Source of the DNA: a virus
Taxonomy: Duplodnaviria; Heunggongvirae; Uroviricota; Caudoviricetes
Virus record (IMG/VR): IMGVR_UViG_3300012996_000001
Span: 1 to 64,000 of that record
Direction: 5' to 3' (one strand)
DNA: 64,000 bases
The number at the start of each line of letters is the position of its first letter. The stretch's first letter is position 1. Below, piece by piece: positions 901-17,044 of this stretch. The position numbers and the translations under genes were made by a program. The notes beneath the pieces were generated by a model. The model saw nothing but the letters and a program-made list of their open reading frames with translations, was not told the DNA's origin and made no database searches.

Positions 901-906
901 AAAATA

Positions 907-983: not shown

Positions 984-987
984 AAGA

Positions 988-1072: not shown

Positions 1073-1077
1073 ATAAT

Positions 1078-1353: not shown

Positions 1354-1521
1354 TCTATCACCTTCTGATCGTCCTGCCAGGCTGGTGAATTTTACCAGTT
1401 TTCTACCAAGACTTAACGAATAGCCATCAGAGATGACTATTGATTAAGCAAGGGTATGTGTTCGATGGCTTGCATTTTTCAGCGTCGCAGGGAGAGTGCC
1501 GTCTCTTGTTCCCTACCGAAT

Positions 1522-1695
1522 TTACAACGGTGTACGAGGTCCACGACCAGTGAAAAAGCTTATGATCCAGATGATTAGTGCAACCACGAAAATTATTTTA
1601 GCTGCCGCCATTGCAGTACCTACCAAGAGGCCACCGAAGCCTAAAAAGGCAGCGACGATTGCAATCAGCAGAAATGCCAATCCCCAACTAAGCAT
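1522..1695 (-). CDS. YtjA/DUF1328-like small membrane protein (57 aa)
   Basis: Not in the ORF track because it is under 60 aa. Translation is [57 protein letters not shown], which matches the UPF0391/YtjA pattern (AAxLGFGGxAGxAAxIAKI). An AAAGGAG RBS lies 6 nt upstream. The opposite-strand ORF 1496..1714 is probably spurious. Confidence 0.55.
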
Positions 1696-1850
1696 ACCTA
1701 CTCCTTTCGGTTAAGTTGTTGGTGCCACACTAACGCAGTGGCCTCGGGGCTTTAACGTCTTCCGAGTACCGACATCTCTCGCCATTATTTTTGGCTCCTT
1801 GACCCCGCGCTTTTCATGGCGCAGGCGGGCACCTCACACGACTCTGGATT

Positions 1851-1926
1851 TGGCGACTCCACGAGGGTTCGAACCTCGGACCTGCGACTTAACGGGACGC
1901 CGCTCTACCTACTGAGCTATAGAGTC
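1851..1926 (-). tRNA. tRNA-Asn (anticodon GUU), one T-T mismatch in the anticodon stem
   Basis: GCTCAGTAGGTAGAGC D-arm, loop CCGTTAA, GGTTCGAACC T-arm and CCA. Confidence 0.55.
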
Positions 1927-2107
1927 AATTATAGGGTGCGCCCCTTCGGGTGATGAGATGAACAAGCCTTAAACCGGACATTTCTGTACGAATTAAGACA
2001 AACGCCAAATCAGGGACCTTCAGTTGGACGACTTACGGTTGGCCTGTTGTCTGGGCTGAGGGCTACCTGATGGCTACCGCATTTACCAGTTCAACACCGC
2101 TTCTTTA

Positions 2108-2184
2108 TGGTCGCCCCTGCTGGAATCGAACCAGCTACCTCCCGATTATGAGTCGGATGCTCTAACCAAATGAGCTAAGGGGCA
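2108..2184 (-). tRNA. tRNA-Met or tRNA-Ile2 (anticodon CAU)
   Basis: GCTCATTTGGTTAGAGC D-arm, anticodon stem-loop TCCGA-CTCATAA-TCGGG, GGTTCGATTCC T-arm and CCA. Confidence 0.65.
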
Positions 2185-2187
2185 ATT

Positions 2188-2261
2188 GGTTGGGGATGAT
2201 GGGCTTGAACCAGCGACCTAACGGTTATCGACCGTTTGCTCTGCCACTGAGCTAATCCCCA
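2188..2261 (-). tRNA. tRNA-Ile (anticodon GAU)
   Basis: GCTCAGTGGCAGAGC D-arm, anticodon stem-loop AACGG-TCGATAA-CCGTT, TTCAAGC T-loop and CCA. Confidence 0.6.
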
Positions 2262-2319
2262 TTTGTCATAACATCTCTGTCATGACAGGTCAGGTTGAAT
2301 CAGAGCCTAACCTTTTGTT

Positions 2320-2395
2320 TGGTCGGTTGTACAGGGATCGAACCTGTGACCTCGATATTAAAAGTATCTTGCTCTACCGTCTGAGCTAACAACCG
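2320..2395 (-). tRNA. tRNA-Lys (anticodon UUU)
   Basis: GCTCAGACGGTAGAGC D-arm, anticodon loop CTTTTAA, GGTTCGATCCC T-arm and CCA. Confidence 0.65.
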
Positions 2396-2399
2396 TGAA

Positions 2400-2493
2400 T
2401 GGCAGTAGAAGAGAGATTCGAACTCTCGGGCCACGGAGACCGCAGCCGACGCCTTTCCAAGGCGCTGCCTTAAACCACTCAGCCATTCTACTA
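2400..2493 (-). tRNA. tRNA-Ser (anticodon GGA), type II with a long variable arm
   Basis: Anticodon stem-loop GCGCC-TTGGAAA-GGCGT, variable-arm hairpin CGGCTGCGGTCTCCG, GAGAGTTCGAATCTCTC T-arm and CCA. Confidence 0.6.
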
Positions 2494-2611
2494 GTCAGCC
2501 TGCAACCGCAGGCATTATCACTGGTCCTCTCCGGTCCTACCTTCAACGAGGAAATCAGTGCCTTAATAAATCCCTTCCCTAATGCGCCGTTAGGCGGGGA
2601 AGGTGTACTTA

Positions 2612-2694
2612 TGGTGGGGCCGGGTGGATTCGAACCACCGTGTGATATACATGATTTACAGTCATGCGCCTTCAACCGCTCGGCCACGTCCCCT
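2612..2694 (-). tRNA. tRNA-Tyr (anticodon GUA), type II
   Basis: Anticodon stem-loop CATGA-CTGTAAA-TCATG, a long variable arm, GGTGGTTCGAATCCACC T-arm and CCA. One A-G mismatch in the acceptor stem. Confidence 0.6.
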
Positions 2695-3907: not shown

Positions 3908-4159
3908 TCATGCTGACTCCTTTACGATTGAAAGTTTATAACGTGAGGTCTTGTCGGCCTCATTAGGGTAAAACGAGTATAAGTGGTTACCTTCGCCGAA
4001 GTCAACATTATTCCAGTCTTCGATTGGGAAACCTACGGTAGTGAAAGCCAAATCATCAGCCTCTTCGATAGCATCTTCTAAGTTGTCAAAATAGTTGATG
4101 CATTCTTCGGAGGTATATTCAGGGGTTATGTAGCTGAGGGTGATTTTGAAATTATCCAT
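3908..4159 (-). CDS. hypothetical acidic protein (83 aa)
   Basis: ORF on the operon strand. Confidence 0.4.
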   Translation of the reverse strand: MDNFKITLSYITPEYTSEECINYFDNLEDAIEEADDLAFTTVGFPIEDWNNVDFGEGNHLYSFYPNEADKTSRYKLSIVKESA

Positions 4160-4218: not shown

Positions 4219-4581
4219 TCAACGATGGGCTAGCGCTTCCATGAGTTCGTCTAGCGCAGTATTCTGAGGGGTAAATATAATCTCAAAGCGAAGGATACGA
4301 TCTTTCTTATCCTGCTCGGTAAGTTCGACAGGTATTATGTCGACAGGAGTCATAGGTAAGATATAGGAATCGTCCGGCATCATTCCAACCACATGGTTAT
4401 CACTATTGCGAGAAAGTACGACTCTATCACACGTATCCTTGTAAACCTCCTGTGCGACGTTGTGAGCGTTTTCCGCGTAGTAGTCGAGCAAACCCTCCTC
4501 TACGCTTGTCTGTGGCATCTTAGAGCGATCTGGATGCACTGCTGCACGGTTATGATTGTGCTTGGCAACTGGATTTCTCAT
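4219..4581 (-). CDS. hypothetical protein (120 aa)
   Basis: ORF on the operon strand, downstream of nadV. Confidence 0.45.
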   Translation of the reverse strand: MRNPVAKHNHNRAAVHPDRSKMPQTSVEEGLLDYYAENAHNVAQEVYKDTCDRVVLSRNSDNHVVGMMPDDSYILPMTPVDIIPVELTEQDKKDRILRFEIIFTPQNTALDELMEALAHR

Positions 4582-4695
4582 CTTCTTTCTCCTTGCGGTA
4601 AATTTCTTGCTTAGCCAAGATTACGTCCATAGCATAGATGGGTTTATTTGTACCCTGATACTCTAAAGGCTTAATACTCATCATATCTCCGTTAA

Positions 4696-4722
4696 ATAAA
4701 CCGCCCCGGAGGGCGGCTGTTG
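4696..4722 (-). terminator. rho-independent terminator after nadV
   Basis: On the minus strand: stem CCGCCC/GGGCGG with loop TCCG, followed by TTTAT. Confidence 0.5.
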
Positions 4723-6528
4723 TTATTTAAGGTTGGCTGTAACACGTTCACGAATTTCTGTGAGCGTCTCATCAACCAACAGTTTTCCGTCACGGAATAC
4801 CGGACGAAGTTCGTTGTCGGCATCATTAACCTGCTCCAGTGACAGGTTATCAACCAGTTTAAGTACGCCGTCTTCGCCACGAACAACCTTGAGGAAGCCT
4901 TGTGCAGATTTCTTACCAAGGTCGGTCTTCGGCTCTTTGACGACCATAATCTGCTGACCATCGATAACTGCGCCAGTTGCTTTCACAGCCATCCCCAGTG
5001 AATCACGGGTGGTGTACTGGGTAGTATAAGAGCCAACACCATACACAATGTTGCTGGATGCAAAGCCCTTGGCCTCCAGGCGCTCAAAGATCTCTTTGGC
5101 ACGAGCAACAGTGATGGAGTCACCATAGATAAGGCCAACATGACTGTCGAGGGTACGGTAACCCTTAGAGTTCACGTCACCACCGAAAACATCCCAAAGG
5201 AGTTCAACCGAGCCTTTCTGCTCGTTATTAAGTTCAGCCTTCTCGTAAGAGATTACGCCGCTACCGTCAATGTAGTAGTACGTCTTGTCGTGGCGGTTCC
5301 ACTCAATCTCTCCCTTCATCAGGTACAGTTCACCGTCAAACAGGAAGTAGCGCTCAACTTCCGTCTCGCCACGCTCACCGTGCGGAGTTTCTTTGCTGAC
5401 TTTCTCCACTGCACTTTCCAGTGCCCAGTCAGCCGCTGCGTACAGATTGCCAGCTTTGTCGAGGTTCTCGACTTCACGCCAGTCCAGTGTGCCGCAGATA
5501 ATGTCTTCCGGTACGCCGGAGTCCGGGCGGAACACTACACGACCATCACGGGCCATGATTTCGTCTTTCAGGGTACTAACACCCTCGGTGATCAGACGGA
5601 ACCAGTCGTAGCTGTCTCCAACATAAGATACGAAACCTTTTGGGAAAAATTCCGTAATGTAGCGGTACAGGAACTCGACCTCCGCATGGAAACGAAGATC
5701 ATCTAAAGACATCCCCGGATGTTCATAACGAAGACGACCGATGATGAAGCCGATGTTGGTTGTTGCAACACTATGCTCCGATGCTGGGATTGACCCGGCA
5801 ACAAACTTACCCTTCATACCGTAATAGCGGTTAGCATACAAAATGGCCGGGATAGTGTCGGTGCCCTGTGAGTTGATCAGTTGACCAAATTCAGACTGAG
5901 CGGCATCGTGTGTACCTGCCTGACCACGATAAGCGAAACAGTGGATCTGGAATGGTACATGGAGGTTGTTGTCACAGGTTTTCTCCGCCCAAGCCTCGGC
6001 CAGCTTACGGTACTGCCAAAAAACAGTCGCTGTTGTAATGGTCTTCCAGTTCTCAGCAGAGATCACAGACTCCAGATAGTTAGGGAGCCAGTAGAAATCC
6101 TTGTGAGTGTTCTGGATGGTAAATACCGGGACCTGCACTGGAGAAAGAGTACCTTCTGGCAGAGCGCGGATTTCAACAGGCAGGTATCCGAGGTCATGGA
6201 GCTTTTCAAAACCCCAAGTTTCTACCATGTCAGGACCGATAGCCAGATCACAAGTTTCTTTGAACTCACCAATGACTTCATGTTTAGGACGACCGAAGAA
6301 TTCACGATTAAAGTGTTCGATCAGGAACCATTTGATGAAGCCTTGCAGGCCAGCAGACATCACGTTATTCTCATCATCACTGAAATGAGTGAAGTATTTG
6401 CTGGAGCGGGGTGTCATATTGTCCTGAACGATTTCAGATTTTTTGCTGTACATCGAGATATGTGCGGGCTTATAGAAATCCGCGAATAAGGTAGGGGATT
6501 CATTATGTAACATATCATTCTCCTTCAA
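4723..6528 (-). CDS. nadV: nicotinamide phosphoribosyltransferase (NAMPT/NadV family)
   Basis: 601 aa, the full-length NAMPT size. The family pattern is recognised across the protein, for example ...FHAEVEFLYRYITEFFPKGFVSYVGDSYD... and GSIPASEHS. Confidence 0.8.
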   Translation of the reverse strand: MKENDMLHNESPTLFADFYKPAHISMYSKKSEIVQDNMTPRSSKYFTHFSDDENNVMSAGLQGFIKWFLIEHFNREFFGRPKHEVIGEFKETCDLAIGPDMVETWGFEKLHDLGYLPVEIRALPEGTLSPVQVPVFTIQNTHKDFYWLPNYLESVISAENWKTITTATVFWQYRKLAEAWAEKTCDNNLHVPFQIHCFAYRGQAGTHDAAQSEFGQLINSQGTDTIPAILYANRYYGMKGKFVAGSIPASEHSVATTNIGFIIGRLRYEHPGMSLDDLRFHAEVEFLYRYITEFFPKGFVSYVGDSYDWFRLITEGVSTLKDEIMARDGRVVFRPDSGVPEDIICGTLDWREVENLDKAGNLYAAADWALESAVEKVSKETPHGERGETEVERYFLFDGELYLMKGEIEWNRHDKTYYYIDGSGVISYEKAELNNEQKGSVELLWDVFGGDVNSKGYRTLDSHVGLIYGDSITVARAKEIFERLEAKGFASSNIVYGVGSYTTQYTTRDSLGMAVKATGAVIDGQQIMVVKEPKTDLGKKSAQGFLKVVRGEDGVLKLVDNLSLEQVNDADNELRPVFRDGKLLVDETLTEIRERVTANLK

Positions 6529-7168
6529 GTAAAGTTAAGACAGGCTCTCTGTCGTTCAATTTCTTCTCTAGCATGGCAACTATGTTTTCCAGTCTTACCG
6601 ATAGAGTTGAACCATCGTAATCTATGTGTTCCTTCAATGCAACAACTTTTTCTTCAACCCAGCGAAGATGTGCATCAAGCTCTGTGTCAAACTGGCCGAG
6701 AGTCTTTTTCTTTCCGTTCATAGTAATCTGAGAAGTAACTCTGTGACCACGCTGGTGAGGATAAGCACCCGGGAGGTATTTCCTTCCACGATTTCCATGC
6801 ATGTTAAAAAACTTATTCAATTCCTGACTCACGAAAACACACTTCTCTGGACCATACTCCTTGTTACCCGGGATAAGGATGTCTTTATCCAATTGCTTCC
6901 CTACATAGTCCTGCTTAATCATCCACGCACGAAAATTACTAAACTTCAACCACTCTTCACAAACAGTCGGGTAATATCTGTATGTATACTTACGTCGATA
7001 TGCCTCACTGTAACAACGATACATCATCTGGAACCAAGTCTTATAGAATGGACAACCCCATACTTCCACGGTCTTTCCATTTACCGTGGTTGTCTCTCTA
7101 ACAGGGGTTTTGGAGTCGTTAATGCCGACCCCATACACTACCCCTTTAACCTCAGCCGAACGAGACAC
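6515..7168 (-). CDS. HNH homing endonuclease (AP2/NUMOD-type), free-standing
   Basis: N-terminus GKTVEVWGCPFYKTWFQM.. is typical of phage HNH_3 plus AP2-like homing endonucleases. It is inserted between nadV and prs. Confidence 0.55.
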   Translation of the reverse strand: MSRSAEVKGVVYGVGINDSKTPVRETTTVNGKTVEVWGCPFYKTWFQMMYRCYSEAYRRKYTYRYYPTVCEEWLKFSNFRAWMIKQDYVGKQLDKDILIPGNKEYGPEKCVFVSQELNKFFNMHGNRGRKYLPGAYPHQRGHRVTSQITMNGKKKTLGQFDTELDAHLRWVEEKVVALKEHIDYDGSTLSVRLENIVAMLEKKLNDREPVLTLLEGE

Positions 7169-8027
7169 TGGTATCTACCATTTTGAAAATGCCTTTTTCA
7201 TTTCGACCCTGAATATTCTTCTGCCAAGGATATGCACAATAGACCTCGTCAACCGAACCGTCGAATACGTCAACGCCGTAGGAGAAAATACCGTGGGTTG
7301 CGTAAAGAATAATTTCAGAAGCTCCAGATGTTCTCAGTACACGACCCAGTTCAATAAACGTGCGTCCCCCGTCGATCAGATCATCTGTCATGATAACCCG
7401 CTTACCTTCAACACTCGGACCACTGTAAGTGGTATTGGTGATCTCGTTGGTTACGAGATTCCTTTGTTTAGCGCCAACACCGACAGTCTCATGACCAACA
7501 ATCTGAGCCAGCTTTGTAACTTTCTTAACAGCCCCCGCGTCCGGGGCAACAATAACAGCGTCTTTGAAAAAGCCCTCTCCCAGAATCTTCAGTGCCAGTT
7601 CGTGTTGCTGATAGATTCGCACATTGTTGATATGGGAGGGTGCGACATCCGAATGAGGATCGCAAACAATCACCTCATCAAAGCCGCAGAGGTTAATAAG
7701 CTTACCAAACAGAGCAGATGACAAAGCCTCTCCGTTGACCATTACACGATCCTGGCGAGCATATGGGATGTAGGGCAGGTAGAGAGTCTTTTCGACTTTA
7801 TGCCCTGTACCACGTCCCATGCGATTAAACGCATCGATAAATAATAAAAGGTCAATGGGGTCCTGTGGACTATCCATATGGGCATGAACAGTCAAACCAC
7901 CGACACTCGTAATATTATGCTCCAATGAAACCGGAGAATTAGAGCCGATGCGAACATTGCGCTCACCACCTGCAAAGGTTTTAAATTCGATATCCAGGCG
8001 GTGACCGCCTAAAGATGCTCTGATCAT
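7152..8027 (-). CDS. prs: ribose-phosphate pyrophosphokinase (PRPP synthetase)
   Basis: 291 aa. Carries the PRPP-binding loop VIMTDDLIDGGRT and the motif VIVAPDAGAVKKV. Confidence 0.8.
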   Translation of the reverse strand: MIRASLGGHRLDIEFKTFAGGERNVRIGSNSPVSLEHNITSVGGLTVHAHMDSPQDPIDLLLFIDAFNRMGRGTGHKVEKTLYLPYIPYARQDRVMVNGEALSSALFGKLINLCGFDEVIVCDPHSDVAPSHINNVRIYQQHELALKILGEGFFKDAVIVAPDAGAVKKVTKLAQIVGHETVGVGAKQRNLVTNEITNTTYSGPSVEGKRVIMTDDLIDGGRTFIELGRVLRTSGASEIILYATHGIFSYGVDVFDGSVDEVYCAYPWQKNIQGRNEKGIFKMVDTSVSFG

Positions 8028-8410
8028 TTTATCTCCTCGTTGAAGTTAGAAAATTTTAAAATATTAGGGTCATTGACCGTTATGTAGAGTCGGGTCTTGA
8101 CCTTTTCACCTGTACCAATGTTTTCCTTGATGGTGGATATGTATCCCATTTCCTCCATACGCTTAAGAAACTGCCCTACCTTGGTTCTTGAATTCACAGA
8201 CATACCGAATAGCTCAGCCAGCTTAGCTTGCGACTCATAGTAGCATCTGTCAAGAGGATCACCATTCCGTACAGCCTTTCTTGCAAAGAAACCATACCTC
8301 CAGTGAAGAATTATCATCTTCTTCACATCATCAGTCCGCATTCTCACCACCCACTGCATCGGGAACTGTGTGAATGATCCCTCAGGGATGGAAATACCAT
8401 ACTCTTCCAC
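8024..8410 (-). CDS. winged-HTH DNA-binding protein (putative transcription regulator)
   Basis: GTG start with an AAGGAGGG RBS. Helix-turn-helix segment SQAKLAELFGMSVNSRTKVGQFLKRMEEMGYI. First gene of the leftward operon. Confidence 0.45.
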   Translation of the reverse strand: MEEYGISIPEGSFTQFPMQWVVRMRTDDVKKMIILHWRYGFFARKAVRNGDPLDRCYYESQAKLAELFGMSVNSRTKVGQFLKRMEEMGYISTIKENIGTGEKVKTRLYITVNDPNILKFSNFNEEIK

Positions 8411-8705
8411 TCACCCTCCTTACGAAAACCACCAGAGTCTCTCACCTAAAAACAGCCCTGTCAACCCATGTGTCCTAAAAGGCACACAAGAGTATATAAA
8501 ACATAAACCCCTCACTCCGTTCGCCCTCCGGGTCCGGGTTTATTAATCTTATAATTTATTCGTTACACTCATAAATTATTATATTTATAACTATTATTCA
8601 TATCCATTCATAATAGTTATTAAAACAATATGATCTTATAGTCTACGCCTATTAAAACAAAGATCTTTATATAGATCTTATCCTAAAAATTCAAAATTTA
8701 AAGTA

Positions 8706-8734
8706 TTGACATGCATTTTATGATCAACTAAACT
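8706..8734 (+). promoter_or_regulatory. sigma70-type promoter TTGACA-N17-TAAACT for the rightward gene block
   Basis: Lies in the AT-rich divergent intergenic region 8411-8772, which also contains the 10-bp inverted repeat ATAACTATTA/TAATAGTTAT (8590-8623) and AAGATCT/AGATCTT (8660-8680). Confidence 0.35.
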
Positions 8735-8772
8735 CCCACCTATAAAGTAAGAGACTAAGAGGATACTTTATA

Positions 8773-9054
8773 ATGTTATCGAATAAGAAAAGAACTGAAA
8801 TGAATGAACTGGAATTAGAGCATCTCCAAGCTGTACGTGAGGCATGGCGTTCAGCCAAAGCTGGTATGGTGGTGTGTATGGTTTCTGTCTATGAATGTGG
8901 ATGGGAGACTCTACTAGGTCGCTATTATGATGTGGTGATCAAATATGTGGAAGAGGGCCTGATCTACCACCGTGTGGAAAACAGTGATCAACCCGGCCTC
9001 AAGTTGGAGACTTCCGACTTAGATAATAAATTTATTGAAATGGGGATGATTTGA
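8773..9054 (+). CDS. hypothetical protein (93 aa)
   Basis: First ORF of the rightward block. RBS GAGGA. Confidence 0.45.
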   Translation: MLSNKKRTEMNELELEHLQAVREAWRSAKAGMVVCMVSVYECGWETLLGRYYDVVIKYVEEGLIYHRVENSDQPGLKLETSDLDNKFIEMGMI

Positions 9055-9195
9055 TGGACACGTTTATTCGTCTGGGGTACTATACCCTCTGGATCTTCTT
9101 GGTAGTCAAGTATGGGCTTCCTTGGCTATCTGCTAACCTTTGGGACAAGGGCGAAGATCGTTACAGTTACAGAAAATCAAGCAAAGGAGAATGAA

Positions 9196-9399
9196 ATGAA
9201 AGATTGTGTAAATAGCATAGTGGCCTTTGGGATGAATCAAAAAGAACTCGACATTGTCTGTTTTGTGGCATTCGTCACAGGAATCGTCCTGTTTGGTCGT
9301 TGGATGATCAACTATCTTAACGCCCCTGTTGGAAAAGAGATGGATCGTTCATTCTTATCTGTTGACTTGGAGAGAGAAAATGCATCTCGTCGTAAGTGA
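9196..9399 (+). CDS. small membrane protein
   Basis: Internal ATG preceded by a GGAGA RBS. One TM helix. Confidence 0.35.
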   Translation: MKDCVNSIVAFGMNQKELDIVCFVAFVTGIVLFGRWMINYLNAPVGKEMDRSFLSVDLERENASRRK

Positions 9400-9685
9400 A
9401 AATTTGGCCGAACATTTAGAAAAAATATACCTGGCACAGCCTAAACCTCGTTTCTACGGCTGGTGCTTGGATATCAATAACCAACTGGAGTTCTTAGAGA
9501 GCAAACTCAAGCAGTTTGACTTGGAATTCACAGTTGAAGATTTCACTCAAGACGGCGATAGCCTGCGTGTTACAGTGTCAGGCGATCCTGACCAAGTATC
9601 TCGTATGGATATGGCTCTTCTTGTCTACTCAAATGCAAAGTCAATGCAATACTTGGTTACTTTGCGACATATGGATAAGGAATAA
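9380..9685 (+). CDS. hypothetical protein
   Basis: ATG with a GGAGAGAGAAA RBS. The ORF track starts it at 9329. Confidence 0.4.
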   Translation: MHLVVSENLAEHLEKIYLAQPKPRFYGWCLDINNQLEFLESKLKQFDLEFTVEDFTQDGDSLRVTVSGDPDQVSRMDMALLVYSNAKSMQYLVTLRHMDKE

Positions 9686-9686
9686 C

Positions 9687-10442
9687 ATGCCAAGACGTTT
9701 AATCATTATCTCTGGGGCGGGCACGGGTGCGGAGAGTGGTATCCGTACTTTCAGGACCGACGAAGTTTCGGGCAAGTCGCTGTGGGACGAGTACGATGTT
9801 GAAGAAGTCTGCAACATCCACTCATTCAATGTGGGTTTTTACTCAAAAACCCATGAGTTTTATAATGACCGCCGTGTAGAGTTAGCCGGGGTGCAGCCTA
9901 ATGCTTTCCACCACCAAGTTGCGGAGTGGTACAAGTCTTACCCGGGGCTTGTTAAGAACATCACGACGAACGTCGATGATCTTCTTGAGCGGGCCGGAAT
10001 ACCTGCCCCTGCTATCCTGCATGTTCATGGATACCTACCTGAGGTAATTTTGCAAAAGGGGCCGGGCGATCCTAAAAAGATCGTAGATATAGGATACTCT
10101 CGCCTTAACCCTGAGGATTACCACTGGTGTAAACCCAACGTGGTATTTTTCGGAGAGTATCCTCCTCAGTACGCAGAAATGAACCGGGAACTTAGCGATC
10201 TTAGTGGTCAAGATTTGGTGATTGTGGTAGGTTGCAGTGGTGTGGTTATAGATTTTATCTATGAGCTTGTAACCTACCAGCACTACGGCAATTACAAGAT
10301 CTGGTGTGTTAATCCCAAGCCGAGCAATTATGAAGTGCAAAAAGGGGAGGATGGGGATATCGTCCTTTGGAAAGGAACGGCTGTTGAGGTTTTTGAGAGT
10401 AAAAACTTCATTGCGGCGGTAGAGAAACATATGGAGGGCTAA
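9687..10442 (+). CDS. Sir2-family NAD-dependent protein (deacylase / ADP-ribosyltransferase-like)
   Basis: N-terminal Rossmann motif IISGAGTGAESGIRTFR matches the sirtuin GAGISAESGIPTFRG motif. ATG at 9687 is in the 9516 ORF frame. Confidence 0.7.
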   Translation: MPRRLIIISGAGTGAESGIRTFRTDEVSGKSLWDEYDVEEVCNIHSFNVGFYSKTHEFYNDRRVELAGVQPNAFHHQVAEWYKSYPGLVKNITTNVDDLLERAGIPAPAILHVHGYLPEVILQKGPGDPKKIVDIGYSRLNPEDYHWCKPNVVFFGEYPPQYAEMNRELSDLSGQDLVIVVGCSGVVIDFIYELVTYQHYGNYKIWCVNPKPSNYEVQKGEDGDIVLWKGTAVEVFESKNFIAAVEKHMEG

Positions 10443-10867
10443 TGAGTAATAAAGAGTTAAGTTCTTTCCTTGAGCGGTTGAAGGAAACTTCTGCCATTGT
10501 GGAAACGTGGCCGGATTGGAAGAAAAATCAGTTAGGTGCTGAATATGTTACAAGGAACCATCAAGAAGAATTAGATCCTGACGAAATGGAGTTTGAAAGT
10601 CCCGAGGGTAGCGTATGGATCGTTGCTGTAGACATACAGGGCCTGGTTACTATTCTTAAAGCACCCAATATCCATTACAGTTATTTTGATAATGGTAAAA
10701 GTGCGGAAGACATTGGTTTGCCTTGCGAAGTGGAAGATGTTGGCCCTGGCGTATATCGCTGGACTTGCGACTTGATTTCAAGCAAAGACTGGGAAACTGG
10801 GATTGTGGACGACTACGAGTTCCAAGTAGAAAAGCAAGAGCTGTTGTGGTCACCGGAAAGTGCTTGA
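10442..10867 (+). CDS. hypothetical protein (141 aa)
   Basis: ATGA overlap with the Sir2 stop, suggesting translational coupling. Confidence 0.45.
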   Translation: MSNKELSSFLERLKETSAIVETWPDWKKNQLGAEYVTRNHQEELDPDEMEFESPEGSVWIVAVDIQGLVTILKAPNIHYSYFDNGKSAEDIGLPCEVEDVGPGVYRWTCDLISSKDWETGIVDDYEFQVEKQELLWSPESA

Positions 10868-10953
10868 CGTCTTAAATTTTATTGCGGTATTCTTAATCGG
10901 CAGCGGGCTTTCTCTCGCTGCCTTGACAATAGTTGCTTTACGAAGGAGAAACA

Positions 10954-12321
10954 ATGTCCAATGTGACAAGTATTATCGCCCAACTGGCGGCGACACGATC
11001 ACCCAAAGAGAAAGAAGTAATTCTCCGGGCTAACCAAGACAACGCAGTTTTACGCGAGGTGTTTCGCCTGGCGTACTCTAAAGAGATGAATTTCTTTGTC
11101 AGAAACTTCAAAGTGGTCCCTATTGCAACACCGGGACTGAATACGCTGGCAGAATCTCTGGACATGCTGGTAGAGAACATTGCTGGCCGTGTTTACACGG
11201 GCGATGATGCACGCTCTTTTCTGACACAACTTGTACAGACCTGCTCAGAGCCGGACACCCTGCTAAAAGTTATCAATCGTGACTTAGAATGCGGGATCCA
11301 AACCACGCTGACTAACAAGGTCTGGAAGGATTTGGTCACCGAACCTCCATACCAGAGCTACACCCTGTTCAAAGAGGATCTGCTGCGTAAGTTCAACTAT
11401 GTCGGTGCTTTCTCCGACGAAAAGATGGACGGCCTGTATGCGGACATCATGGTGTGGCCTGAGCAGGTGATCTATCGCTCACGTTCAGGCAAGGAACTTA
11501 ACTTCCGAGTCCCTTCTGTCGTAGAAGATGAATTACGTCAAGCCGCTGTTGGATTAGGCCCTTTCGTAGTTCACGGAGAGGGTCTTGTTATCGACGATAG
11601 CCCTAATGGTTTCATGGAGAGGGCAGAGGGCAACGGTTACCTTAATCAAGACTCTGATGAAATAGACCGTGATCGTGTCTGCCTGGTGGTTTGGGATATG
11701 GTATCGATGGAAGAATATATCTCTCGAAAATCAAAAACACCCTACTCCGAGCGCAGAACAAATACCCGAGCCTTGGCTGCTGGTGTCTTTCAATATCGTC
11801 ACTTCAAGATGGTCAAGGGTCGCGAGATTAACAGCCTCAAAGAGGCTATCGAGCACTTCATCGAGATGCGTCTCCAGAAGAAGGAAGGGACTGTACTTAA
11901 AGAGGCAGCTATGCCTTGGGGAGACAACAAAACCAAGAAAGGTGTCAAGCTGAAGAATGAGTTTGACGTTGACCTGGAAGTTGTAGCCACTTTGCCACAC
12001 AAGAAGGATCCTTCTTTGGTCGGGGCTCTTATTTGCCAAACCCGTGATGGTCTCTTGGAAGTTGGTGTTGGATCAGGTCTGACTGATGCTCTTCGTAAGC
12101 AGCCTCCTGAGTATTTTATCGGTCAGATTATCACAATCAAGGCTAACGATATTACGAAATCTGAGACCAAGTTGTTGCAGTCTTTGTTCCTGCCGCGCCT
12201 GAACTACAAGTTTGTTGAGATCCGCCGGGACAAGTCGGTGGCTAACAGCTTAGAGGAAGTGATTGAGGCTTCGGATTCTCTGCTGGAACTGCTTCGTAAA
12301 ATTGCGGAGGAGATTGTATGA
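10954..12321 (+). CDS. ATP-dependent DNA ligase, T4 gp30-like
   Basis: Aligns by eye with T4 ligase: N-terminal ...KEKEVIL..NAVLREVFRLAYS, RDLECGI, motif I KMDG (T4 has KADG) and C-terminal LPHKKDPSLVGALIC (T4: HRKDPTKAGGFILE). Confidence 0.75.
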   Translation: MSNVTSIIAQLAATRSPKEKEVILRANQDNAVLREVFRLAYSKEMNFFVRNFKVVPIATPGLNTLAESLDMLVENIAGRVYTGDDARSFLTQLVQTCSEPDTLLKVINRDLECGIQTTLTNKVWKDLVTEPPYQSYTLFKEDLLRKFNYVGAFSDEKMDGLYADIMVWPEQVIYRSRSGKELNFRVPSVVEDELRQAAVGLGPFVVHGEGLVIDDSPNGFMERAEGNGYLNQDSDEIDRDRVCLVVWDMVSMEEYISRKSKTPYSERRTNTRALAAGVFQYRHFKMVKGREINSLKEAIEHFIEMRLQKKEGTVLKEAAMPWGDNKTKKGVKLKNEFDVDLEVVATLPHKKDPSLVGALICQTRDGLLEVGVGSGLTDALRKQPPEYFIGQIITIKANDITKSETKLLQSLFLPRLNYKFVEIRRDKSVANSLEEVIEASDSLLELLRKIAEEIV

Positions 12322-12743
12322 GTCCGGGAGGTGTATTGTGGTTAGTTTTAGCTGCGTTGGCGTTGTTTGGGTGGACTTATATCAGTAAAATACACCCGCT
12401 AGTTATGACTCGACCTCCGGTGAAGAAAATTCTCGAATTGGTTTCTTGCCAGGATGGTTTTTGCATTGATGATAACCCAGCAGACAAGAGTTGTGATTTC
12501 ATCTTGCACGACACGGTGACCGCCGCTAAGACAGAGATAACGCGAGATTGTTTTTCTGGACATATTCTTTTCGAAGGTGACTTTGATTGGATGAACCAGT
12601 TCGAAAGAAAACGGCTGCATGATGTTCTGTGCAAAATCCATAAGGATCGCGTTTCAAAATACCAAGAAGCTTGTCGTGTGGAGAAAAAGGCCAGCGATGA
12701 AAGAAATCGTGAGGCTGCAATTAAAATTTACGAAAACCGTTGA
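12318..12743 (+). CDS. hypothetical membrane-anchored protein (141 aa)
   Basis: N-terminal TM segment; overlaps the ligase stop. Confidence 0.4.
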   Translation: MSPGGVLWLVLAALALFGWTYISKIHPLVMTRPPVKKILELVSCQDGFCIDDNPADKSCDFILHDTVTAAKTEITRDCFSGHILFEGDFDWMNQFERKRLHDVLCKIHKDRVSKYQEACRVEKKASDERNREAAIKIYENR

Positions 12744-12767
12744 CAGTTTGAAGGGGTCGTGTAGAAT
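12740..12767 (+). promoter_or_regulatory. promoter TTGACAGT-N16-TAGAATGA
   Basis: Nearly identical to the nrdB promoter at 27558-27585. Confidence 0.45.
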
Positions 12768-12796
12768 GACCCCTACCACAACAGAAGGAGTTATTG

Positions 12797-13210
12797 ATGT
12801 CAAAGCAGTTCATTAAAGATGCAATCCGTACCGAGTCACCAAATTTCTTTATCGAAAAGGTCGACCCGCGTCTTCTCCATGCCGCAATTGGATTGGGGAC
12901 TGAAGCAGGAGAGATCCAAGACGCTCTTAAAAAGACTATCTATTACGGCAAAGACCTCGACTTAGTTAACCTGAAAGAGGAAGTCGGCGACATTTTGTGG
13001 TACTTAGCAATTGCAATGGATGTTCTCAACACAGATTTCGATAGTGAGCAGGACCGTGTTATCCGCAAGCTGAAGGCTCGTTACCCGAGTAAGTTCGAGA
13101 ACGACCTGGCGGAAAACCGCGACATTGCAGCCGAGCGCAAGATTCTGGAAACTGAATCCAAAGGATTCAACAAAGGTCATCCCGCATATGTTCCGGGAAT
13201 TGACGATTAG
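12797..13210 (+). CDS. MazG-like nucleoside triphosphate pyrophosphohydrolase
   Basis: All-alpha NTP-PPase pattern HAAIGLGTEAGEIQD ... EEVGDILWYL. Confidence 0.6.
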   Translation: MSKQFIKDAIRTESPNFFIEKVDPRLLHAAIGLGTEAGEIQDALKKTIYYGKDLDLVNLKEEVGDILWYLAIAMDVLNTDFDSEQDRVIRKLKARYPSKFENDLAENRDIAAERKILETESKGFNKGHPAYVPGIDD

Positions 13211-13275
13211 AAGTTGTTGACACACTAATATTTAACGGGCACAATGGCCCTACTTTAAACAAAGAGGAGATTAAG

Positions 13276-13605
13276 ATGTCTAAGCAAGACCTGATTAACA
13301 CCATCCCTTCAGACGAAGTGGCTCGTAAAAAGCTGGTGAACACTGTTAACGCGGCGGTCCAGTTAATGAAGGATATCAAAGGTTCTCAGGAAGACCTGAA
13401 AACCGTAATCGCGGTGGCGAAAGAGGATCAGAACATCGATCCTAAGTTCCTGAAGACACTTGTCAAGTTTGAATTTGACACCCAAGTGACAGCCGAGAAG
13501 AAGCGTGCTGAACTGGAGGCCCAAGTCGAACAGGTTAATGAACTGGACATCCTGATGGGACGTTCTGATATTGCAAAAACTGCCGTATTCGGCGGCGCTG
13601 AGTAA
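13276..13605 (+). CDS. hypothetical coiled-coil protein (109 aa)
   Basis: RBS AGGAGA. Confidence 0.45.
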   Translation: MSKQDLINTIPSDEVARKKLVNTVNAAVQLMKDIKGSQEDLKTVIAVAKEDQNIDPKFLKTLVKFEFDTQVTAEKKRAELEAQVEQVNELDILMGRSDIAKTAVFGGAE

Positions 13606-13796
13606 TGAAAATCCTGATCAATGTCTTACTGATGTTGATCTTCGCGGCAACGATGGTGGGATTTGTAATCCCACCTCTAATCTCCGGGGATACAATCAGC
13701 GCTATTCTGGGTGTTGTCTTACTGTTCGCGACTATCGTAGCTGAAGCGTACTGGGGCAAAAAGGTTTTCAAAAACGTCGTTAAGGAGAAACAATGA
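13605..13796 (+). CDS. small 2-TM membrane protein (63 aa)
   Basis: Directly upstream of the SPFH gene and overlapping it. Confidence 0.4.
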   Translation: MKILINVLLMLIFAATMVGFVIPPLISGDTISAILGVVLLFATIVAEAYWGKKVFKNVVKEKQ

Positions 13797-14635
13797 AATT
13801 TTTAAAAGGTATTCTGCTCACTGTAGCAATGATCTTCGCAGCTTCCGCACTAACTGGCTGCGACCGTGTAGTACCTGGTGAAGTAGGTATCAAGGTTAAC
13901 AAGCTGGGCGACGACAAAGGTGTGGGTGAGGTGGTTGGTGTAGGCCGATACTGGACCGGGTGGAACACCGAAGTATACACCTTCCCAACTTTCAAACAGA
14001 TGAAAACTTACGACGAACCCTTTAGTTTTCAGATGAGTGATGGTACGGCAATTGGTCACAAAATTGGTGTTGCTTACCGCGTAGATCCGGCTAAAGTTGC
14101 CACTGTTTTCCAAACCTACCGTAAAGGTGTTGATGACATTACGGAATCAGATTTGCGACAGAAGATTGCGGATAGTCTCAACCGTCTTGCATCCCGAATG
14201 ACGACAGACAAGTTCATCGACGGTGGTAAGGCAGACGTATTATCGGATGCGCTTAAAGATATTCAACGCGAGATGGGTCCGGTAGGTATTGATATTATCA
14301 GCCTGTCTTGGGTAGATAAGCCGATTTATCCAGATACAGTCATTGCTTCTATCAACGCAAAGGTAACGGCCAACCAGACTACATTGCAGCGTATTCAGGA
14401 AGTCCAACAGTCTAAGGCTGAGGCGGACAAAAAGATTGAAGAGGCCCGTGGTGAAGCTGAGTCTACCAAGCTGAAAGCACAGGCAGAAGCTGATGCAATT
14501 AACATTCGTGGTAATGCTTTACGATCAAACCCCGAGGTTCTGAAGCTTAACCTAATTGATAAGTGGGACGGTAAGCTGCCTGTGTACCAAGCAGGTGATG
14601 CACAGAATATTATTTCTCTGCCCTCTTCAAAATAA
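13793..14635 (+). CDS. SPFH/Band-7 (stomatin/prohibitin-like) lipoprotein
   Basis: Signal peptide with lipobox LTGC, followed by an SPFH-like core (GEVGIKVNKLG..., coiled-coil Q/A/E-rich C-terminus). Confidence 0.6.
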   Translation: MKFLKGILLTVAMIFAASALTGCDRVVPGEVGIKVNKLGDDKGVGEVVGVGRYWTGWNTEVYTFPTFKQMKTYDEPFSFQMSDGTAIGHKIGVAYRVDPAKVATVFQTYRKGVDDITESDLRQKIADSLNRLASRMTTDKFIDGGKADVLSDALKDIQREMGPVGIDIISLSWVDKPIYPDTVIASINAKVTANQTTLQRIQEVQQSKAEADKKIEEARGEAESTKLKAQAEADAINIRGNALRSNPEVLKLNLIDKWDGKLPVYQAGDAQNIISLPSSK

Positions 14636-14719
14636 GTCTTTACTTGTCGTAAAGAAAGCTGTAAATTGTAATCAAGCCGGGGATATTCCCCGGTATATAA
14701 TAATCAAAGGAGACCTTTT

Positions 14720-14956
14720 ATGAACATCAACTTCAACGACTCAACTTACGAGAAACTGCGCTTCCTGGCTGATAAAGAAGGCCGCTCAGTTGCTGCATTC
14801 GTCTCCATGCGTATGGATGAACTGACAGGCCAACTGGTCAATGTCGAATTTTCTCTGAATGATCTTCCCGAGGGTGTTCTCCCGGCGCACATGGACCCAA
14901 CCCCTCGCCCAGCGCCGAAGAATAAAGACCCGGTAACGTTCGACCCTTACCAGTAA
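14720..14956 (+). CDS. hypothetical protein (78 aa)
   Basis: RBS AAGGAG. Preceded by the palindrome CCGGGGATATTCCCCGG. Confidence 0.45.
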   Translation: MNINFNDSTYEKLRFLADKEGRSVAAFVSMRMDELTGQLVNVEFSLNDLPEGVLPAHMDPTPRPAPKNKDPVTFDPYQ

Positions 14957-14963
14957 AATAACA

Positions 14964-14985
14964 GCCGCCTTACGGCGGCTTTTTA
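14964..14985 (+). terminator. rho-independent terminator
   Basis: Stem GCCGCC/GGCGGC with loop TTAC, then a T5 run. Confidence 0.6.
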
Positions 14986-14986
14986 G

Positions 14987-15014
14987 TTGACAGCCTAAAA
15001 TTATCATGTATGCT
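14987..15014 (+). promoter_or_regulatory. promoter TTGACA-N16-TATGCT
   Basis: Immediately after the terminator. Confidence 0.4.
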
Positions 15015-15040
15015 GAAAATACCAAGCAAAGGAGATCATT

Positions 15041-15244
15041 ATGAACAATACTAAACTGATTGTAGCGAGTGTTCTGGCAGGATTATTTTTATCCTTTTCT
15101 GTGGCAGCGGCCAATACGTTGGACTTGGAAGACAGCTACCGAGATGGTGATCAGACTGTTTGCGTTTACAGCGATGGCCGACACACAGCGGTAGTTTACA
15201 AAGATGGCGCGGGTTCATGTCCTTCTAAGCATACGACGCACTGA
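15041..15244 (+). CDS. small secreted protein with signal peptide (67 aa)
   Basis: N-terminal signal peptide, AAA cleavage site and paired cysteines. Confidence 0.45.
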   Translation: MNNTKLIVASVLAGLFLSFSVAAANTLDLEDSYRDGDQTVCVYSDGRHTAVVYKDGAGSCPSKHTTH

Positions 15245-15250
15245 GGTAAT

Positions 15251-15625
15251 ATGGATTTTTTGGAAAAACCTATCCCCGAAAACCTGCCGGAAGTTTGCTA
15301 CAAAGTGGCAGATTGGTGGGATGGTCGAAAATTGCAAAGACGTATTGTGTGCGCCGCTAACCGCTTTAAACTGAAAGCGGGAGGTTTTGTTGTTGTACCT
15401 GGTGCAAGGCACTACTCGCCAGATATGGCTGCGGTTATTGACCTTATTGAAGGTCAGTTGGATACTCGCCACGTCTATGACGTAAACCAAGGATTCATCG
15501 ATCAATGGGGTGATTACCATACCCGGAAAGATGCTTTAGTTATCGCTACATACGCGGGCCAAATAAACACGGTAAGGCAGAAAGGTGCCCCTTATGATGA
15601 ACTTTTTAGTGAGGATCTGTACTGA
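15251..15625 (+). CDS. hypothetical protein (124 aa)
   Basis: ORF. No confident motif. Confidence 0.4.
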   Translation: MDFLEKPIPENLPEVCYKVADWWDGRKLQRRIVCAANRFKLKAGGFVVVPGARHYSPDMAAVIDLIEGQLDTRHVYDVNQGFIDQWGDYHTRKDALVIATYAGQINTVRQKGAPYDELFSEDLY

Positions 15626-15966
15626 TGAAAAAAGCCATATTGGAAGTGTCGGCAGTTGATGAGGAATCCCTTGTTGGTTTCCGAAAGATTGAACCCACAG
15701 GGCCCGCAGGGGAGAGGTTCGGCCTTTTCTTGCCTTCCTCTAAGGTGGGGTTAGAAAATATTGCTTTCGGGGAGCTTGCGACAATCGTCGAGAACAATAT
15801 TGGATTTGGAAGTAAATTCGATTATAAATTTAGCTATATCCATATTGGACAGGATCGGTTTAACCAAGACTCTATCGATCTTATCGTCGGGTGGATTAAT
15901 GATTTCCCGAGGACTGCGGATTGCCGCATAAGCCTGCCATTCTCACTTCTTTATGGGGAAGATTGA
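15625..15966 (+). CDS. hypothetical protein (113 aa)
   Basis: ORF. Confidence 0.4.
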   Translation: MKKAILEVSAVDEESLVGFRKIEPTGPAGERFGLFLPSSKVGLENIAFGELATIVENNIGFGSKFDYKFSYIHIGQDRFNQDSIDLIVGWINDFPRTADCRISLPFSLLYGED

Positions 15967-16537
15967 AATGAAAGTAACTGACAAACACGTCTTGTTCTAC
16001 TCTTACCAGGATATTTTTAGCAACCATTTCCGTTGTAAAAAGCCATTTGCCCTCCCTCGTCAAGAACAGGAGGGTGCCCAGTTTTACACGGGCGAACACT
16101 TCATGATGTACGAGAAGGCTAAACTTTTCGCGGATGATGACATCGCCCAAAAGATCCTGAAAGTTTGGCACCCGATGGAGGCTAAAAAACTTGGCCGACA
16201 GGTCCAGGGTTTCAAACAGGGGCTTTGGGAAGAGGTCCGTGAGAATGTCATGCAAGATCTGGTTTACTGCCGGATGCTCTATGATGATGTGGTTCGTAAG
16301 CAAGCGATAGAGCATCGCCTGGCGGGCCGCTCCTTCGTAGAAGCTTCTGACCGCGACCTTATCTGGGGTGTGGGTCTGTCAGAAAATAACCCGCTTATCC
16401 ATGATGAGCGTAACTGGCGCGGATTGAATCTTCTAGGCAAGTCTTGGGACAAATCAACAGATAAGCTGATGAATATGTATGGAGGCTATGATCGAGTAAG
16501 GAAACAGTTTGAAATAGCCGACATTATTCGAGGTTAA
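15953..16537 (+). CDS. NADAR-domain protein (YbiA/DUF1768-like)
   Basis: Core pattern FSNHF...EHFMMYEKAKLFADDDIAQKI...AKKLGR..W...V.....Y..V..KF.Q.P.L...L..T....L.E.S..D..WG.G...N..G.NLLG..LM matches the NADAR family signature. An alternative start at 15968 is possible. Confidence 0.6.
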   Translation: MGKIEMKVTDKHVLFYSYQDIFSNHFRCKKPFALPRQEQEGAQFYTGEHFMMYEKAKLFADDDIAQKILKVWHPMEAKKLGRQVQGFKQGLWEEVRENVMQDLVYCRMLYDDVVRKQAIEHRLAGRSFVEASDRDLIWGVGLSENNPLIHDERNWRGLNLLGKSWDKSTDKLMNMYGGYDRVRKQFEIADIIRG

Positions 16538-16540: not shown

Positions 16541-17044
16541 TTGAAGATTAAACATAAGATTTGTCTGATACCCCAAACCGCATGGGACAATAACCTGCGC
16601 TCTTATCTTACAAAAGCGGGTTGGGATAAAGTCCGGCGTAAGTGCTATGCCGAACACAACCACACCTGCCAGATATGTGGGGGACAGGGGGGCAATGGAA
16701 GAAAACATCCGGTAGAGTGTCATGAGGAGTGGACATTCTCTGATGGTGAGGTTAAGCTGGTTGGCTTAATGTGTTTATGCCCTCCATGCCATGAATTTCA
16801 CCACCCCGGTCTTGCCCAAGTGAACGGTAAGCTTGACAGGGCTATCCGTCAGTTTATGAAGGTTAATAACATCAGCCGAGAAGAGGCTATTAGTTACTTC
16901 AAGGCTGAGTTTACCCTTTGGAGGGCAAGAAGTAACCAAGATTGGTCATTAAATATCGACTACTTGAGTGAGTACATGGGGGCGGATTTTAAGTACAAGC
17001 GCCCAGTTAAGGAAGACAAAGACGACTTTGGTGATGCGTTTTAA
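16541..17044 (+). CDS. HNH/zinc-binding nuclease-like protein
   Basis: Cys/His cluster CQICGG...HPVECHEEW...LCPPCHEFHH. Confidence 0.4.
   Translation: MKIKHKICLIPQTAWDNNLRSYLTKAGWDKVRRKCYAEHNHTCQICGGQGGNGRKHPVECHEEWTFSDGEVKLVGLMCLCPPCHEFHHPGLAQVNGKLDRAIRQFMKVNNISREEAISYFKAEFTLWRARSNQDWSLNIDYLSEYMGADFKYKRPVKEDKDDFGDAF

Follow-up and report, generated by a model that had tools for sequence, protein, structure and literature searches.

A probable NARP1 operon of the plain two-enzyme type in a Certrevirus-like phage, and its Sir2, MazG and NADAR neighbours

The 64,000 nucleotides analyzed here, positions 1 to 64,000 of the viral record IMGVR_UViG_3300012996_000001 (referred to as the window), carry on the minus strand a gene for a NadV-like protein of the Nampt fold and a gene for a homologue of Prs, the phosphoribosyl pyrophosphate (PRPP) synthetase. 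The question raised by this locus is how such a pair could restore NAD+ with no nicotinamide mononucleotide (NMN) adenylyltransferase (NMNAT) in sight. A preliminary description had regarded the combination as unusual and had joined it with nearby Sir2, MazG and NADAR genes in one counter-defence toolkit; all the open reading frames (ORFs) that it named could be located to within a few codons, each with a significant family match, and the strands had been assigned correctly, minus for the NadV/Prs pair and plus for Sir2, MazG and NADAR. Very probably, the leftward operon encodes NARP1, an NAD+ reconstitution pathway, and NADAR, MazG and Sir2 act independently of it. This reading builds on family placement, conserved residues, operon anatomy and synteny, all of which were directly observed. 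The window, 64 kb of a genome of ~148 kb (~85 kb lies outside), comes from a Certrevirus-like myophage of the Vequintavirinae. The top nucleotide matches of a 13-kb query were the Cronobacter phages PBES02, CR8 and CR3, together with Pectobacterium and Enterobacter phages, at ~78-80% identity over 18-26% of the query; no deposited phage covered ≥80% of it, the top one reaching 26% coverage at ~79% identity.

NARP1 was described by Osterman et al. in 2024 (10.1101/2024.02.11.579819) as a two-gene operon of a Prs-like and a Nampt-like enzyme, devoid of an NMN adenylyltransferase. With the purified Prs-like enzyme of phage SPbetaL1, Adps, no product was measurable in a PRPP synthetase assay; the enzyme turned ADP-ribose (ADPR) and ATP into ADP-ribose pyrophosphate (ADPR-PP), which the Nampt-like enzyme, Namat, converts with nicotinamide directly to NAD+ (10.1101/2024.02.11.579819). 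The same survey found NARP1 in 859 of 20,185 phage genomes (4.3%), with Namat nearby in 97% of the Adps-clade genes, and showed that NARP1 defeats the defences SIR2-HerA, type I Thoeris and DSR2, its action being stated to be broad against NAD+-depleting systems (10.1101/2024.02.11.579819). Its tables list two genes of phage CR3, JQ691612_00276 as Adps with Namat association 'Yes' and JQ691612_00277 as 'Adps-associated' Namat, and the orthologues of phages phiTE and CB7 appear likewise as NARP1 (10.1101/2024.02.11.579819). We infer the enzyme activities and the anti-defence phenotypes of the window genes from experiments on such homologues. On this basis, a host NADase (the SIR2, TIR or SEFIR effectors of Thoeris, DSR, SIR2-HerA and others) would split NAD+ into ADPR and nicotinamide, Adps would move pyrophosphate from ATP onto the free ribose of ADPR, and Namat would swap the pyrophosphate of the resulting ADPR-PP for nicotinamide, giving NAD+ directly; PRPP, NMN and NMN adenylyltransferase would play no part in this route. 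That no NMN adenylyltransferase was found would then be explained, because NARP1 makes NAD+ without PRPP, NMN or NMNAT.

The two genes, adps (7152..8027, minus strand) as the first NARP1 enzyme and namat (4723..6513, minus strand) as the second, are co-oriented with one ORF between them, the published definition of NARP1 allowing a distance of up to 10 genes. The labels that Pfam and NCBIfam attach to the two proteins, Prs-like and NadV-like, speak for another reading, in which a genuine PRPP synthetase feeds NadV, NMN rises and either host NadD/NadR or an unseen phage NMNAT finishes the synthesis, amounting to a KVP40-type (NARP2-like) pathway that is unusual or has a step missing; this reading is considered highly improbable, and the Prs-like protein itself speaks against it. 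Its Pfam families are Pribosyltran (1.6e-11) and Pribosyl_synth (2.1e-9). A profile was built from six non-Certrevirus Adps of unrelated phages (GAP31, P19, Bas63, a Pseudomonas phage, FADO and SPbetaL1; sequences from the table of 10.1101/2024.02.11.579819), and on it the window protein scored 222 bits and E. coli Prs 123, a distance of ~100 bits. In BLASTP it reached 122 bits with Bas63 Adps, 87 with SPbetaL1 Adps and 70.5 with E. coli Prs. The NCBIfam equivalog models of Prs gave 59-106 bits against cut-offs of 296-536, such that all failed. At sites where the two groups differ, it has the Adps-type motifs DPHSDV (position 123) in place of DLHAEQIQGFF and DDLIDGGRTF (215) in place of DDMIDTGGT, and in the stretch AK187QRNLVTNEI the residue K187 is the equivalent of K162, the catalytic lysine of SPbetaL1 Adps. 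By profile score, failed equivalog models, motifs and the listing of the CR3 orthologue in the published table, the protein groups with the Adps clade over cellular Prs. The PDB matches included no solved Adps structure, the top ones being ordinary Prs at 5e-23 or weaker. The supply of PRPP, which the preliminary description had assigned to this gene, is not supported: the product of the Prs homologue in NARP1 is ADPR-PP and not PRPP, and the window proteins group with Adps and Namat, and not with Prs and KVP40 Nampt.

The Nampt-like protein stands well apart from the KVP40-type enzymes. The true start of namat is most likely the ATG at 6513, located behind AAGGAG, and not 6528; the predicted product then has 596 residues and begins with MLHN, as in CR3. 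Its general families are Pfam NAPRTase (3.6e-24) and NCBIfam PRK09198 (1.6e-139). A search of the PDB returned 9W5W/9W5X at 6.6e-122, followed by Xanthomonas Nampt (7e-57) and human NAMPT (~1e-44); these two entries are the NAD+-bound and the nicotinamide-bound form of SPbetaL1 Namat (PMC12774641). BLASTP gave 402 bits with Bas63 Namat, 381 with FADO Namat and 120 with the KVP40-type Nampt of ValKK3, and the identities run from 90.9% (P7_Pc) and 88.4% (CR3) over 39.7% (Bas63) and 38.4% (FADO) to 29.7% (ValKK3 Nampt). The catalytic residues are kept, with H247 as the phospho-histidine and R329 corresponding to R306 of SPbetaL1 Namat. In the helix of the selectivity clamp, the aromatic residues Y496/Y500 take the place of F392/Y396, where ValKK3 Nampt has Gly and Gln. 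The substitutions F392G/Y396K made in the Namat study (PMC12774641) imply that human NAMPT has Gly and Lys at these positions. The window protein thus belongs to the Namat clade with its aromatic clamp, a pair missing from the Nampts, and falls outside the KVP40 clade; its far greater closeness to the biochemically defined Namats argues against the KVP40-type reading.

The same can be said of the domains that a KVP40-type pathway would need. A Pfam scan of 126 window ORFs (E ≤ 0.01) gave no match to NMNAT/CTP_transf_like (PF01467), NUDIX (PF00293), Macro or RyR, so that the check proposed in the preliminary description, a profile search for NMNAT, Nudix and macro domains, leaves its remark on the absent NMNAT standing for the window. 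NARP2, the NadV-NatV pathway of KVP40, has the same aim, the restoration of NAD+ under NADase immunity, and also uses a Nampt-fold enzyme, but it depends on PRPP and on the bifunctional Nmnat/Nudix protein NatV, neither domain of which occurs in the window, and window Namat is only ~30% identical to the KVP40-type Nampt, with clamp residues of the Namat type. Among phages with a KVP40-type Nampt, 94% encode an Nmnat as well, whereas the CR3 gene is Adps-associated (10.1101/2024.02.11.579819). An attempt to obtain a NatV from the surroundings of ValKK3 Nampt, as a positive-control NMNAT, yielded seven neighbours with no Pfam match. The combination of Prs and NadV without NMNAT, previously taken as unusual, is the diagnostic layout of NARP1; the proposal that the pair acts as an NAD+-reconstituting counter-defence agrees with its assignment to this pathway.

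Several points weigh against the assignment to NARP1. In pairwise comparison the score of window Adps with FADO Adps, 63 bits, does not exceed the 70.5 bits that it reaches with E. coli Prs, and its placement among the Adps accordingly rests on the profile, the motifs, the Adps of Gram-negative phages and the published tree. The activities ascribed to Certrevirus Adps and Namat would be carried over from homologues outside Certrevirus. In Namat, the clamp-loop residue Lys39 aligns with Arg40 of SPbetaL1, and the loop is five residues longer and rich in aromatic residues (YFTHF); the authors of the Namat study called the clamp loop non-conserved (PMC12774641). Furthermore, window Namat contains an insertion of 87 residues (344-430), which follows the RPDSG motif, and a smaller one at residues 258-277. 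Both occur in the Namats of CR3 and Bas63 as well, and both are absent from FADO Namat, SPbetaL1 Namat and the KVP40-type Nampt; since SPbetaL1 Namat lacks them, the solved Namat structure does not cover them. Two further points also favour the KVP40-type reading: Namat and its homologues keep a PRPP-dependent synthesis of NMN in vitro (PMC12774641), by analogy with which window Namat may produce some NMN, and an NMNAT may be encoded elsewhere in the ~148-kb genome, beyond the 64-kb window. Finally, the promoter and terminator of the operon are candidates by consensus match.

Within the known NARP1s, the operon of the window can be classified more closely. The systems of Bas63/JohannRWettstein (Bas63 being a Felixounavirus by its record), SPbetaL1 and FADO have the same order, Prs-like then Nampt-like, co-oriented and with no Nmnat, and the tested NARP1s share with the window the Adps motifs, the catalytic lysine, the Namat histidine and arginine and the aromatic clamp helix; Bas63 Namat also has a long insertion after RPDSG, like window Namat. 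Different are the moderate identities (Adps 32-39%, Namat 38-40% to the experimentally tested proteins), the homing-endonuclease-like ORF between the two window genes and the Lys in place of Arg40. NARP1-AP adds a Macro phosphatase, Adpp, directed against aRES (10.64898/2026.01.28.702374), and other operons contain RyDEP (10.64898/2026.05.28.727677), both sharing the core of adps and namat with the window. A Macro domain (PF14519/PF01661/PF20016) within two genes and a RyR domain (PF02026) in the operon were sought; none was present in the ORFs 3908-4159, 4219-4581, 6515-7168 and 8024-8410, or in the 126 ORFs of the window. By its predicted domains the operon is a plain two-enzyme NARP1, neither NARP1-AP nor RyDEP-containing. 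The phage is predicted to resist NAD+ depletion by type I Thoeris, DSR, SIR2-HerA and SEFIR-type systems, and to be sensitive to aRES because no Macro phosphatase is present. The correct annotation of the pair is Adps and Namat (NARP1), and not PRPP synthetase and NadV, and beyond this the significance is small: NARP1 itself has already been described, and what is new is one more member of it in a new Certrevirus-like phage. A word of caution may nevertheless be added: judged by its Pfam names only, the pair would pass for a broken salvage pathway, although a different and complete one exists.

Direct orthologues of the operon occur in the Certreviruses (Cronobacter phages CR3/CR8/PBES02 and Pectobacterium phages P7_Pc, DU_PP_I and phiTE), which also have the small upstream gene, the downstream terminator and the tRNA cluster of the window. 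Adps is 67.8% identical to its CR3 counterpart, and against the Certrevirus orthologues it is far less conserved than Namat within the same operon (68-70% versus 88-91%). What distinguishes the window from these phages is the presence of Sir2 and of a Band_7 gene, and an insert between adps and namat that is unlike those of P7_Pc and DU_PP_I and has no counterpart in CR3. Proteus phage Mydo (Mydovirus, Vequintavirinae) likewise carries a replication-initiator-like gene, adps and namat leftward, and a Sir2-to-EndoVII gene order rightward as in the window, but its adps and namat have no HNH gene between them, and ahead of Sir2 it additionally encodes a phosphoesterase, an RNA ligase and an ATPase.

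The junction between adps and namat deserves some attention. It is occupied in the window by an ORF of 217 residues (6515..7168, minus strand), which the preliminary description had called an HNH homing endonuclease. The position of the ORF between the two genes stands, and PHROG 953, 'HNH endonuclease', matches at 2.5e-70, covering only positions 194-390 of the 420 in the profile; there is no Pfam HNH match, nor any Pfam or NCBIfam match at all, and the match to the HNH catalytic motif is weak, with a degenerate LDKD...N...N stretch discernible by eye, such that the designation amounts to a family annotation. In CR3 the junction carries no insert. The layout of P7_Pc is the same as in the window, adps-HNH-namat-terminator, its HNH-type ORF lying at 13475-13990 of locus L006, and DU_PP_I (locus L007, ORFs 5375-5929 and 6761-7345) has one HNH gene at the junction and a second one that splits namat near window residue 264-272. 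A common origin of the inserts of the window and of P7_Pc/DU_PP_I was rejected, as tblastn detected no similarity of the window ORF to the CR3, P7_Pc or DU_PP_I loci. Since the HNH-type ORFs of the three phages with an insert at this junction are unrelated to one another, unrelated mobile endonucleases would have landed there separately, and the adps-namat junction, and with it the NARP1 operon, appears to be a recurrent landing site for them.

The anatomy of the transcription unit is compatible with joint expression. Its first gene (8024..8410, minus strand) encodes a protein of 128 residues that is weakly replication-initiator/winged-helix-like, with matches to PHROG 8453 (6.9e-43) and, at ~1e-5, to phrog_270/678 'replication initiation', and with no Pfam match. 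Counterparts of ~50% identity are found upstream of adps in CR3, P7_Pc and DU_PP_I, and Mydo gp177, likened to it by position and annotation only, is called 'replication initiation protein' and occupies the same place. The genes are tightly packed: the first ORF and adps overlap by 4 nt, adps stops inside the HNH-like ORF, and 1 nt separates the stop of the latter from the ATG of namat. Upstream, the divergent AT-rich intergenic region (8411-8772) holds promoter-like sites in both directions, namely a sigma-70-like candidate TGGATA-17-TATAAT on the minus strand (8578..8606; 10 of 12 matches in a consensus scan) and a rightward candidate TTGACA-17-TAAACT on the plus strand (8706-8734; consensus match). 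Downstream, a terminator-like hairpin, CCGCCC-TCCG-GGGCGG followed by TTTATTT (4694..4716, minus strand, the scan giving the palindrome on the plus strand; a consensus match as well), starts 7 nt past the namat stop, and P7_Pc has an annotated terminator at the corresponding place. The co-transcription of the NadV and Prs genes supposed earlier would fit these overlapping or abutting genes, the promoter-like site and the GC hairpin. A cluster of ten tRNA genes (Gly, Pro, Asp, Trp, Asn, Met, Ile, Lys, Ser and Tyr; 48-2693, minus strand) is located downstream of the operon, as in CR3 and P7_Pc.

A divergent rightward unit, outside NARP1 and on the plus strand, includes the Sir2 gene (9687..10442; PF02146, 2.5e-22), whose product is a CobB/Sirt5-like sirtuin without zinc ligands. 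Its closest solved relative is E. coli CobB (1s5p, 3e-18). The Rossmann motif for NAD+ binding is kept, GAGTGAESGIRTFR at residues 10-23 (GAGxxAESGIRTFR), as are the catalytic residues N95, D97 and H114, and the sequence includes Y59-x-x-R62 (YxxR), which we take to be the class III acyl-recognition motif, as in Sirt5 and CobB. The Cys4 zinc module was not found, C148 being the sole cysteine in the aligned region as opposed to four in CobB. A defence-type Sir2 NADase (ThsA, DSR or SIR2-HerA) was considered and rejected, as there was no PADLOC match at E ≤ 0.001. The protein is predicted to be an NAD+-consuming CobB-like enzyme, either a deacylase or an ADP-ribosyltransferase. Homologues are present in 990 phage records, mostly of T5-like and rV5-like phages, with the T5-like ones as the largest group, and the gene is absent from the loci of CR3, P7_Pc and DU_PP_I, though NARP1 is kept there. 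This zinc-less CobB-like clade of phage sirtuins and the 87-residue insertion that window Namat shares with Bas63 are the least ordinary parts of the locus.

Downstream of Sir2 follow an ORF of 141 residues (10442-10867, plus strand) and, 490 bases beyond the end of Sir2, an ATP-dependent DNA ligase (10933..12321, plus strand; DNA_ligase_A_M 2.7e-11, DNA_ligase_OB_2 2.9e-9), 79% identical to the ligases of CR3, P7_Pc and DU_PP_I. Next comes a nucleoside triphosphate pyrophosphohydrolase of the MazG type (12797..13210, or with a start at 12794, plus strand; PF03819, 1.1e-7), which has the acidic motifs TEAGEIQD and KEEVGD and is 73-76% identical to the MazG proteins of CR3 and P7_Pc; there is no evidence for a link of MazG to NAD+. 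A Band_7/SPFH protein of 280 residues (2e-27), assigned by sequence and size to the ORF 13793-14635 on the plus strand, has no counterpart in the CR3 and P7_Pc loci and is a variable accessory gene.

The proximity of Sir2, ligase and MazG brings up an alternative for the sirtuin alone, compatible with NARP1, according to which the three form a nucleic-acid end-repair module with an NAD+-dependent removal of 2'-phosphates in the manner of KptA/Tpt1, unrelated to NAD+ salvage. Iyer, Burroughs and Aravind predicted RNA end repair by the sirtuin clade of rV5 and Mydo, in the company of RNA ligase, kinase, MazG and phosphoesterase (PMC9503650), and this comparative-genomics prediction of 2022 is all that was found in the literature on phage-encoded sirtuins, experimental work on them, the rV5/Mydo clade included, not having been encountered. 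The row in Mydo comprises phosphoesterase, RNA ligase, ATPase, Sir2, DNA ligase and MazG; window Sir2 is 55% identical to Mydo Sir2, which is located directly upstream of a DNA ligase, and in the window the ligase is one gene downstream of Sir2. The lost zinc ligands, too, argue against a canonical protein deacylase. On the other hand, Pfam gave no match to an RNA ligase, phosphoesterase or kinase near window Sir2, the first two of which had prompted the prediction; Pfam identifies the neighbouring ligase as one for DNA, and the class III motif Y59-x-x-R62 is kept. Moreover, three relatives have ligase and MazG but no Sir2, for which reason a fixed Sir2-ligase-MazG module was rejected, the linkage being loose at most. 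Taken together, end repair is regarded as a tentative possibility for this sirtuin, rather unlikely though worth keeping in mind, and the assignment of the leftward operon to NARP1 is unaffected by it.

The third gene of interest on the plus strand encodes a stand-alone NADAR protein (15953..16537; PF08719, 8.1e-32; PDB 8BAU NADAR, 4.7e-14), a predicted ADP-ribosyl glycohydrolase. In the alignment with PnNADAR from Phytophthora (8BAU), its residues E48, K55 and E130 fall on the catalytic residues E43, K50 and E125. The loss of catalytic residues in Sir2 or NADAR, which according to the preliminary description would weaken its case, was not encountered, as both proteins appear from the alignments to retain them. 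NADAR homologues occur in 717 phage records. CR3 and P7_Pc have the gene at this site as well, with 62-63% identity, and Mydo has it at the corresponding position (gp152, 43% identical); in the window it lies among DNA-handling genes and is directly followed by an HNH gene and an exonuclease gene. The NADARs of phages, among them that of Bas60-62 from the Vequintavirinae, strip ADP-ribose from DNA and thereby defeat DarTG1 (PMC11257639). By analogy, window NADAR most likely removes guanine ADP-ribose from phage DNA and so would counter DarT1-type toxins; the suggestion of an anti-DarT role made earlier agrees with the work on phage NADARs (PMC11257639, PMC11543638) and is, in kind, already published. 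The orphan phage NADARs (AdfN of T4, Bas32 and Bas60-62), DarG1 and PnNADAR share with the window protein the stand-alone domain and the Glu/Lys/acidic triad, and those of the Bas60-62 type are encoded by Vequintavirinae among DNA-metabolism genes, as in the window. The window protein is ~32% identical to Vequintavirus NADARs, and its third residue is Glu, as in YbiA and PnNADAR, in contrast to Asp in DarT1-associated and His in T4-type phage NADARs. Next to this gene, a second HNH endonuclease (16541-17044, plus strand; PHROG 5200, 3.2e-70) has counterparts of 81% identity in both CR3 and P7_Pc; in Mydo, too, this place is taken by an HNH gene. An ORF of 124 residues (15251-15625, plus strand) matches PHROG 839 (4.3e-56, profile positions 56-174 of 253); it precedes NADAR by two genes and is conserved there in both CR3 and P7_Pc.

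It remains to consider whether these genes and NARP1 form an integrated NAD+ economy, in which Sir2 yields nicotinamide and an ADPR derivative, NADAR frees ADPR from DNA, and NARP1 recycles both as one toolkit. The chemistry is compatible, given that NADAR releases ADPR, sirtuins release nicotinamide and NARP1 uses both; there is a precedent in the ADPR-feeding accessories, Macro Adpp and RyDEP; and NARP1, Sir2 and NADAR are found within ~12 kb in the window as well as in Mydo. The known accessories of NARP1, however, reside inside the operon (RyDEP, 10.64898/2026.05.28.727677) or were found within two genes of it (Macro Adpp, 10.64898/2026.01.28.702374), whereas Sir2 and NADAR of the window are on the opposite strand, 1.3 kb and 7.5 kb away, in a separate transcription unit. 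CR3, P7_Pc and DU_PP_I keep NARP1, ligase and MazG without Sir2, with NADAR kept in CR3 and P7_Pc; the largest group of Sir2 carriers are the T5-like phages; the presence of NADAR correlates with genome size and myovirus lineage (PMC9503650); and the ADPR set free from DNA adducts would be tiny beside the NAD+ pool. Common descent explains the shared gene order, which in Mydo runs rightward as phosphoesterase, RNA ligase, ATPase, Sir2, DNA ligase, HNH, MazG, NADAR, HNH, exonuclease and EndoVII, and the succession of Sir2, MazG and NADAR in the window is, judged from this comparison, inherited synteny. An integrated toolkit is thus quite unlikely, and the single toolkit of the preliminary description could not be upheld, with Sir2, MazG and NADAR in the divergent unit, Sir2 missing in the closest relatives, an inherited order, and genes that are common in phages. 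Along these lines, the idea that phage Sir2 runs an NAD+-consuming modification or repair of its own, with NARP1 doubling as the recycling arm for the resulting ADPR and nicotinamide, has little chance of being correct; if true, NARP1 would serve infection as a housekeeping pathway even in hosts that have no NADase immunity. The preferred reading is the one given at the outset, NARP1 as a self-contained pathway beside independent Sir2, MazG and NADAR proteins.

Minor observations concern the remainder of the window. The 42 ORFs from 46000 to 64000, of which many are small and lie on the minus strand, gave no significant Pfam family, which is typical uncharacterised early-gene content. The region 17000-46000 (plus strand) is a block of nucleotide metabolism and replication, with families assigned to the block and not to single ORFs: the large and small subunits of ribonucleotide reductase, ThyX, an NT5C nucleotidase, Endo VII, an exonuclease of the RNase T type, PhoH, a CCA-adding/PolyA_pol-type nucleotidyltransferase, an HD domain, a Clp protease, a UvrD-type helicase and a second, weak MazG-like (PRA-PH) match. 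The ORF 29656-30213 (plus strand), with a match to Glyco_hydro_19 (chitinase class I/lysozyme-like, 2.3e-9), is probably the endolysin. The ORF 30813-31589 (plus strand, 258 residues) has a weak, sub-threshold match to DNA_processg_A (E = 0.0026), a DprA-like Rossmannoid fold, and its product could be a nucleotide-binding domain.

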